A stretch of DNA of 64,000 nucleotides from contig CANRVH010000003.1 of NCBI GenBank assembly GCA_947643225.1, positions 7,499 to 71,498 on the forward strand, in the 5' to 3' direction. The translations under genes were made by a program, and so were the position numbers. Source of the stretch: an uncultured Clostridia bacterium. GTDB taxonomy: Bacteria > Bacillota_I > Bacilli_A > RF39 > UBA660. The stretch's first letter is position 1. Each line of letters begins with the position of its first letter. Below are positions 24,215-25,070 of this stretch, piece after piece. Under the pieces are notes generated by a model, which saw only the letters and a list, made by a program, of their open reading frames with translations, did not search any database and had not been told where the DNA came from.

Positions 24215-24426
24215 TACCTTGGTATTGGCAAATAGAATTTCAACTTACTATGTGCTTATTAACTATCTCATCAACAATAATTATTCTTGATAGATTAAAT
24301 CGTAAGTAGGTGGCTTACATGTTGTATTCTAAGTGTTTTTATTTAACTTGCATTTTTAGAAGGCCTAACGAAGTGGTCTTATGAAAATGGAAGTATCGCA
24401 CGACCTGTGCGAATGACTGAAGAGTA

Positions 24427-24470
24427 GGGGGGGGTACTACGACACCCCCCTAGGAGTGCATTGTGCATTG
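24427..24470 (+). other. pMV158-type double-strand origin: GC-rich hairpin with TACTACGAC in the loop (candidate nick site, 24435-24443) plus two TGCATTG direct repeats (24457-24470)
   Basis: GGGGGGGG-TACTACGACA-CCCCCC is a GC island in AT-rich DNA, immediately upstream of a RepB-like gene. The pMV158 RepB nick sequence TACTACG/AC is recalled from memory. Confidence 0.6.
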
Positions 24471-24488
24471 TGACAAAGGAGGAAGAAA

Positions 24489-25070
24489 ATGTCAAATGTT
24501 AAGAAGGGTAGGTTATGGGCTAGTGTTGGTTATCCTGAGTCTTTACCTACTGATTGGATAGAAAAATTAACTGAAACAGGATTACAAATTGCCATAAGTC
24601 CTTTACATGATAAAGATCTAAATCCAACAGGAGAAGAAAAAAAGCCTCATTACCATATAATTTTTGTTTATGAAGGTCCTACAACTTATAATCATGTAAA
24701 AGAATTGTGTTCTAGTTTAAATATGACTATTCCTATCAAATTAGAAAGTTTGAGAGGTATGTATCGTTATCATATACATATTGATAATCCTGAAAAGTAT
24801 CAATATAATGATAATGAACGCATTTTATTAAATGGTTTTGATAAAAGTTCTGTAGATTCTTTAACTGAAACTCAAGTTGATTTATTGCAAAATGAGTTGA
24901 TTGATTTTGTAGTAGATAATAATATTACAGAATATTCTAAATTGATTTTAGAATTAAAAAGAAATGAGATGTTTGATTTATTAAAAGTTGCTAAAAAGAG
25001 TACAATTTTCTTTGTTTCTTTTATTAAGAGTTATAAATTTAGTCATTTTTCGGATAACTCTGCAAATTAG
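24489..25070 (+). CDS. rolling-circle replication initiator, pMV158 RepB-like (Rep_2 family)
   Basis: YPESLPTDW..ISPLHDKD..KKPHYHIIF (HUH motif) aligns closely, from memory, with pMV158 RepB (YPESIPSDW..ISPLHDKD..KKAHYHVLY); 193 aa; AAAGGAGG SD. Confidence 0.8.
   Translation: MSNVKKGRLWASVGYPESLPTDWIEKLTETGLQIAISPLHDKDLNPTGEEKKPHYHIIFVYEGPTTYNHVKELCSSLNMTIPIKLESLRGMYRYHIHIDNPEKYQYNDNERILLNGFDKSSVDSLTETQVDLLQNELIDFVVDNNITEYSKLILELKRNEMFDLLKVAKKSTIFFVSFIKSYKFSHFSDNSAN

Follow-up and report, generated by a model that had tools for sequence, protein, structure and literature searches.

The segment at 24397-25070 of a 64,000-nucleotide stretch of DNA from an uncultured Clostridia bacterium (contig CANRVH010000003.1; the whole stretch is hereafter called the window) is very probably the leading-strand replication module, a nic locus followed by an initiator gene, of an inovirus-like prophage that occupies 20517-25088. 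The initiator, Rep, is supported by its sequence as a member of the pMV158 RepB family, and the 9-mer exposed in the loop of the hairpin upstream of its gene is the published RepB nick sequence. An earlier reading of the letters alone, here called the original prediction, had proposed a pMV158-type module inside a filamentous prophage. The sequence features that it described are present in the window, and the location that it proposed is borne out by the surroundings, which form an inovirus-like element with a Zot-like ATPase and a gene order shared with relatives.

The initiator and the nic locus

The rep gene (24489-25070, + strand) is preceded by the ribosome-binding site AAGGAGG (24476-24482) and encodes a 193-aa HUH initiator with Rep_OBD and RepB_C domains. 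The motifs YPESLPTDW, ISPLHDKD and HYHIIF, on which a motif-for-motif resemblance to RepB had been proposed, are all present in the translated open reading frame (ORF), and the resemblance is confirmed by profile searches in which both Pfam domains exceed their curated cut-offs: Rep_OBD (PF01719) is matched with an E-value of 5.9e-37 and 127 bits (cut-off 24.6), and RepB_C (PF21861), the C-terminal oligomerisation domain, with 30.2 bits (cut-off 27.3). The sequence of the pMV158 RepB crystal structure (PDB 3dkx) is matched with an E-value of 6.5e-15, and the identity of the two proteins, taken over the N-terminal domain (OBD) only, is 32%. Profile searches of PHROGs and NCBIfam returned no family for this Rep. 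RepB coordinates Mn2+ through His39, Asp42, His55 and His57, uses Tyr99 as its catalytic residue and carries a conserved Tyr115 (PMC5030251). These six residues align with H40, D43, H54, H56, Y94 and Y106 of Rep, all of them invariant across 22 aligned relatives. Loss of the catalytic tyrosine had been put forward as a ground for abandoning the original prediction; in the alignment, Y94 stands opposite Y99. Judged by its homology to pMV158 RepB, Rep probably acts as an Mn2+-dependent HUH endonuclease that assembles into rings.

The nick hairpin, equivalent to inverted repeat I (IR-I) of pMV158, lies on the + strand at 24425-24452 and reads TAGGGGGG GG-TACTACGAC-A CCCCCCTA. Folded as single-stranded DNA it forms an 8-bp stem (TAGGGGGG/CCCCCCTA) with a loop that holds TACTACGAC (24435-24443), and the predicted nick falls between G24441 and A24442. 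The hairpin ends 37 nt, and the predicted nick lies 48 nt, before the rep ATG; the original prediction was right about a G/C hairpin with a nick loop but wrong to place it 90 bp upstream, a distance that holds approximately for the left edge at 24397 only. Folding of the 101-nt region 24390-24490, also as single-stranded DNA, gave a free energy of -18.6 kcal/mol (z = -5.0, with 0 of 200 shuffles as stable) and yielded two hairpins, at 24396-24412 and 24425-24452, the first of them being the small hairpin CGCAC-gacct-GTGCG that had been predicted ahead of the nick hairpin. The 9-mer TACTACGAC is expected by chance 0.11 times per window and was observed twice. Its second exact occurrence, at 30434-30442 inside the alaS coding region, is without hairpin or inverted repeat and was set aside as a chance match.

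Two hairpins precede the nick hairpin on the + (viral) strand at 24346-24412, an imperfect one at 24346-24394 and the small TCGCAC-gacct-GTGCGA at 24396-24412, and may be candidates for a minus-strand origin or a packaging signal. In nearly all relatives the nick hairpin is preceded, at a distance of 10-40 nt, by a strong GC-rich hairpin, the sequences of which are unrelated to one another; equivalents of the 24346-24394 hairpin occur in the related loci L002, L004, L010, L012, L013, L017 and L032. Several of these upstream hairpins hold TAGCG-like motifs that resemble CS-6 of the plasmid ssoA origins. On the - strand, a promoter-like site (24495-24467, TTGACA-17-CACAAT, with a TG), which reads away from the rep start and over the origin, was weighed as a promoter for an antisense RNA and dropped, because its -35 element is made by the ATGTCAA start of rep, a start missing in many relatives, and because its transcript would miss the rep ribosome-binding site.

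In pMV158, the RepB nick sequence 5'-TACTACG/AC-3' is situated in the IR-I loop, two 7-bp proximal direct repeats (PDR, GTGCCPuA) follow IR-I, and the bind locus of three 11-bp distal direct repeats (DDR) lies 84 bp downstream; PDR are found in all family members and DDR in most (PMC1851628). The window 9-mer TACTACGAC is identical to that nick sequence, which the original prediction had given in its published form. The pMV158 sequence used for comparison (NZ_MZ396393) was located by tblastn with the RepB sequence. Its origin, GGGGGGGC TACTACGAC CCCCCCC TATA GTGCCGA GTGCCAA followed by three TCGGCGACTTT, can be aligned element by element with that of the window, GGGGGGGG TACTACGAC ACCCCCC TAGGA GTGCATT GTGCATT GTGACAA. 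The tandem 7-bp repeats of the window (24456-24476, + strand) abut the right arm of the hairpin and correspond to the PDR: Tandem Repeats Finder detects GTGCATT x2.4 at 24456-24472, and the two GTGCATT copies (24456-24469) match GTGCCGA GTGCCAA of pMV158 in position and sequence. The repeats had been noticed originally as TGCATTG, the same unit in a register shifted by one base, and taken for a candidate bind locus; they exist, but as the PDR of the nic locus.

Overall, the window shares with pMV158 (pLS1) the Rep domain pair of OBD and C-terminal oligomerisation domain, the metal ligands and catalytic tyrosine, an identical 9-mer looped out between the G-run and the C-run of an inverted repeat, two GTGC-type 7-bp repeats directly after the hairpin, and a nicked strand that is the rep-sense strand. 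It differs in that the origin is without distal 11-bp repeats, copG or room for the RNA II control region; pMV158 has its copA (CopG) gene between origin and repB, and its nick-to-rep distance is about 410 nt compared with 48 nt here. Furthermore, pMV158 is a plasmid, whereas the window replicon belongs to a dif-integrating phage.

The arrangement is conserved among relatives. With each species represented by a single genome, a scan recovered 31 loci whose Reps share 52-70% identity with that of the window, all in gut metagenome-assembled genomes (MAGs) that carry the labels uncultured Bacilli, Tenericutes or Mycoplasma sp. CAG:877. Gene order, hairpin and insertion locus are repeated in about 30 gut Bacilli MAGs. 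Of 33 related loci, 28 have a G-run/TACTACGAC/C-run hairpin that precedes the beginning of the rep match by 48-222 nt, with repeats directly after the hairpin. The sequence of these repeats varies by locus group (GTGCATT, GTGACAT, GTGACGC and others) and the 9-mer is constant, the pattern that would be expected of a Rep-specific binding site beside a family-wide catalytic substrate. Covariation in the stem was assessed over 36 distinct hairpins: five of the nine pairs had changed on both sides, and the score of 0.140, compared with 0.089 in shuffles, was reached by 2 of 500 shuffles. In a control in which the partner column was slid, every measure fell. The nearest Reps share 89% identity in metagenomes and 69-70% in named viruses. 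In IMG/VR, no relative emerged from a protein-pattern scan based on the Rep alignment; a DNA scan found the nick hairpin on 11 viral contigs of that database, ten of which have distant Reps (34-41% identity), and three small contigs among them (4.1-4.6 kb) carry a Zot-like gene as well.

The prophage and the dif site

The prophage measures 4,572 bp and is delimited by a 20-nt direct repeat, AGAAGTTAACATAACATCAA, whose copies at 20497-20516 (the attL core) and 25069-25088 are 4,572 bp apart. The window holds one copy of the element, and all 13 of its ORFs are open; module and prophage are apparently intact. That the surrounding element is an inovirus-like prophage is supported by its gene order and, upstream of the replication module, by a Zot/pI-like morphogenesis ATPase of 225 aa (23537-24214, + strand) with an N-terminal hydrophobic helix and the Walker A motif GKQGQGKT. 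This ATPase matches phrog_197, 'Zot-like toxin', with an E-value of 4.6e-7, and 11 of 14 relatives match Pfam Zot (best 1.4e-8). A profile built from these 14 relatives has as its best PDB match 2r2a (E 1.6e-5), deposited as 'Uncharacterized protein', which we take to be the N-terminal domain of Neisseria Zot. The order o59-o89-coat-...-zot-rep is common to circular Inoviridae records and to many MAG loci and metagenome contigs. The unit of 4.57 kb also contains a run of hydrophobic ORFs of 39-109 aa and a 68-aa coat-like protein with a basic tail, and circular genomes of 4.4 kb filed as Inoviridae are syntenic with it.

The right repeat copy overlaps the rep stop codon and lies within 25069-25099 (- strand), where it completes a 28-nt dif site, the site of chromosome dimer resolution, at 25072-25099 (- strand), ACTTCCTATAA-TTGATG-TTATGTTAACT. 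At the left end, a partial dif (20500-20527, - strand) keeps the XerD arm TTATGTTAACT and the centre TTGATG with a degenerate XerC arm (5/11). The complete site has the same base as B. subtilis dif, ACTTCCTAGAATATATATTATGTAAACT (cited in PMC3025954), in 21 of its 28 positions; within the two arms, 20 of 22 agree. The attP sequence of the prophage includes AAATTAGAAGTTAACATAACATCAACAATATT. The sign of the GC skew switches at about 25 kb, where the flanking genes converge. Neither the ORF list nor profile searches revealed an integrase or recombinase among the prophage ORFs. A host gene about 2 kb from dif (27066-27965, - strand) scores as a XerD equivalog (334.5 bits, cut-off 329.6); xerC was not seen in the window or the other stretches examined. 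Because there is no integrase, a partial and a complete dif flank the element and the GC skew switches there, integration and excision are most likely carried out by the host XerC/XerD recombinases, by analogy with filamentous phages of Vibrio. At least 12 MAG loci have a relative inserted between the same host genes, in the arrangement hth257 / prophage / DUF1540-deoB-xerD-rarA, and there a full dif follows rep directly.

The xerD gene stays linked to dif in every related MAG locus whose sequence extends far enough. Two mirror-image forms of the attachment site occur in the phage lineage: in the form seen in the window (20497-20527, 25069-25099), the XerD arm and the centre are preserved and it is the XerC arm that has degenerated, and in that of L013 and L025 the XerC arm and the centre are preserved and the XerD arm has degenerated. 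In both, the well-kept arm begins directly after the rep stop codon. The positions compared were 3928 and 8558 in L013, 4141, 8597 and 13116 in L017, and 3385, 8555 and 13722 in L025. The orientation of host dif relative to hth257 and DUF1540-deoB-xerD also differs between related MAG species (25072-25099 of the window compared with L013, L017 and L031), suggesting that dif has been inverted, perhaps by recombining with phage sites. Some loci carry arrays of prophages at dif, with two identical tandem copies in L017 (4417-13050), two different prophages in L007 (3749-8534) and an inverted second copy in L025 (about 12970-13730); these resemble the CTX/RS1/TLC arrays of Vibrio cholerae. Reduced units were seen as well: an origin and rep alone between hth257 and deoB in L028 (1712-2338), a rep fragment (residues 51-122) beside dif in L033 (8001-8219), and L014, a 1,950-nt contig with rep only. 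Such Rep-only units may be either decay products or satellite-like elements.

The remaining genes of the prophage fall on both strands. In the circular phage, rep and attP would be followed by a terminator-like hairpin with a T-run (20524-20546, + strand). A 61-aa ORF with one hydrophobic helix (20532-20717, - strand), described from its sequence only, lies downstream of the gene for an XRE-type repressor (20674-20898, - strand; HTH_3, E 1.5e-9; phrog_8, E 4e-19), the sole - strand phage gene with family support. The strongest promoter-like site between the XRE gene and the + strand operon (20945-21002, + strand; TTGACA-17-TATATT, 11/12) is overlapped by two 20-nt operator-like repeats of the form TACATGATATT(T/C)C(G/A)TGTATA. 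These repeats, TACATGATATTTCGTGTATA and TACATGATATTCCATGTATA, are 31 bp apart and are likely operators. The + strand operon is headed by two small conserved ORFs of 59 aa and 89 aa (20996-21425), the former being the one kept most widely among relatives. They are followed by a candidate major coat protein of 68 aa with a hydrophobic core and a basic C-terminus (21443-21649, + strand), a terminator-like hairpin (21654-21678), and a series of candidate minor virion and membrane proteins of 39, 40, 109, 323 and 99 aa (21699-23524, + strand) that are syntenic in relatives.

Alternative readings of the module

Several observations weigh against regarding 24397-25070 as the working replication module of a filamentous phage. 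The coat proteins had no family match in Pfam and PHROGs profile searches, and the Pfam Zot score of this copy of the ATPase, 18.1 bits, is under the curated cut-off of 20.3. Decayed copies exist in relatives (L028, L033), and a lone prophage copy gives no sign of activity. Repeat searches near the origin found no DDR-type bind locus and no further tandem repeat; the high-affinity bind locus of three 11-bp distal repeats is required by pMV158 in vivo, and without it the loading of Rep at the origin may differ from that of the plasmid. Neither CopG nor antisense-RNA copy control was found, and there is no ORF in the 37 nt between hairpin and rep. As DDR occur in most, not all, members of the family (PMC1851628), their absence marks a variant inside the family rather than an exclusion from it.

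It is conceivable but unlikely that the module is a fossil, belonging to a prophage that has become fixed at dif and no longer replicates or makes virions despite its intact frames. Such a reading would fit the single copy in the window and the remnants left in relatives, namely the rep fragment of L033 and the solitary rep of L028, and the degenerate XerC arm at attL might block excision. However, the 13 open ORFs keep their synteny with circular genomes from viromes, both the nick hairpin and the set of catalytic residues are intact, and near-identical architecture recurs in several metagenomes, including on contigs of 4.6-7.9 kb.

A second possibility is that the rep-origin cassette is a separate element, a small pMV158-family plasmid or Rep-only unit that came to lie at dif beside an unrelated prophage. 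The lone origin and rep between hth257 and deoB in L028, the 1,950-bp contig L014 with rep only, and plasmid Reps of up to 47-52% identity would agree with this. The flanking repeats, however, bracket the entire 4,572-bp unit, and the window has no third dif-like site between zot and rep. In addition, the circular virus genome L001 (4,471 nt) has zot, origin, rep and repressor contiguously, and the zot-then-rep order is kept in about 15 related loci with a detectable zot homologue. We consider an independent cassette very improbable.

The suggestion that the G/C hairpin serves to terminate or attenuate transcription between zot and rep, rather than as an origin, prompted by its intergenic position and by the rarity of strong G/C hairpins in a genome of 28% GC, can be virtually dismissed, given that no T-run follows it, that the terminator scan did not report it, and that its loop 9-mer is the RepB substrate and is invariant in loci whose Reps are down to 34% identical, a constancy that would not be required of a terminator loop.

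A proposed replication model and its relation to known systems

For the replication module as the origin and initiator of the phage, a cycle can be proposed on the pattern of pMV158. Rep would attach to the 7-bp repeats and to the right arm of the hairpin; on the supercoiled replicative form it would drive, or take advantage of, extrusion of the G/C cruciform. Tyr94, with Mn2+, would then cut the + strand at TACTACG/AC (G24441/A24442), leaving Rep on the 5' phosphate. The 3'-OH would be extended by a host helicase and polymerase, displacing the + strand, which Rep would reclose into a circle at the regenerated site. Either the circle, which is of coding sense, would be turned back into duplex DNA, or the coat and Zot-like proteins encoded upstream would coat and extrude it. 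That the nick falls on the sense strand of all virion genes agrees with known filamentous phage biology.

Plasmid-type initiators in filamentous phages have been recorded previously. Inovirus rep genes have repeatedly been exchanged with, or replaced by, plasmid ones (Kazlauskas et al., 2019), and the supplementary data of Roux et al. (2019) list, among inovirus protein families, iPF_00199 with 71 members, annotated 'DNA replication, RCR, Rep_2'. That family documents Rep_2-type initiators in inoviruses as found here, but is a catalogue entry only. Homologous Reps also occur in 36 phage records of GenBank, under the names bajarodino virus, Dulem virus or Inovirus sp. The original prediction had considered a chimera of plasmid-type replicon and inovirus-like structural genes worth documenting; the combination of a Rep_2 replicon with an inovirus-like module is real, but the case for documenting it is weakened by iPF_00199 and these 36 records. 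Such a plasmid/phage chimera is of an already known kind, of which the prophage is a further member.

The closest named viruses, bajarodino virus 14 (PQ006174) and Dulem virus 59 (PP511793), classed as Inoviridae in GenBank, have Reps 69-70% identical to that of the window. Genomes of the bajarodino, Dulem and 'Inovirus sp.' group share the zot-origin-rep-repressor order, the hairpin, the 9-mer and the TGCATTG repeats, and the circular genome of bajarodino virus 14, at 4,471 nt, is close in size to the 4,572-bp prophage. They are free circular faecal genomes with no known host, whereas the window presents an integrated copy with a host and an attachment site; Dulem virus 59, unlike the prophage, has a recombinase gene. 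Among plasmids, the closest Reps (46-52% full-length identity) belong to Rep_2 plasmids of Staphylococcus and Mycoplasma (e.g. NC_001382.1) and to circles of the rat-caecum metamobilome (HG796830 and others), which unlike the prophage are 1-4 kb in size and without virion genes; the comparison with these was by Rep only.

With respect to integration, the Xer-exploiting filamentous phages of Vibrio have the same anatomy as that seen here (PMC4246890). CTXphi, VGJphi and TLCphi likewise have no integrase, use dif at the terminus, and form tandem arrays and Rep-only satellites or remnants. Unlike the present element, which belongs to a Bacilli lineage, they have proteobacterial hosts, and their Rep is of a different family. 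In TLCphi and the gonococcal island GGI it is the XerC arm that is kept, whereas in the attP of this prophage the XerC arm is degenerate and the XerD arm and centre are kept. The examples of integrative mobile elements exploiting Xer (IMEX) named in a 2017 review are all from Proteobacteria. In the searchable literature, no description was found of a pMV158-type nic locus in these phages or of their integration at dif; these two features constitute a modest addition rather than a surprise.

What may be distinctive, and we put this forward tentatively, at somewhat less than even confidence, is a very small filamentous phage lineage of uncultured AT-rich gut Bacilli (MAGs labelled 'Bacilli', 'Tenericutes' and 'Mycoplasma sp. 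CAG:877') that combines two borrowed parts, a complete pMV158-type nic locus without bind locus and the hijacking of XerCD at dif. If so, the lineage would represent Xer-exploiting phages outside the Proteobacteria, with an attP in two mirror-image forms always directly after the rep stop codon, with tandem arrays, and with Rep-only derivatives left behind at dif. The prophage in the window provides tiny inoviruses, previously known only as circles from faecal viromes, with a host, in an uncultured lineage of gut Bacilli, and an attachment site. The whole nic locus of pMV158, not rep alone, has moved between plasmids and filamentous phages, and therefore the best-studied rolling-circle plasmid system can serve as a direct model for these phages. 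Because modular exchange is already accepted, the replication module itself changes no view; integration at dif in a Bacilli lineage is the part likeliest to interest specialists.

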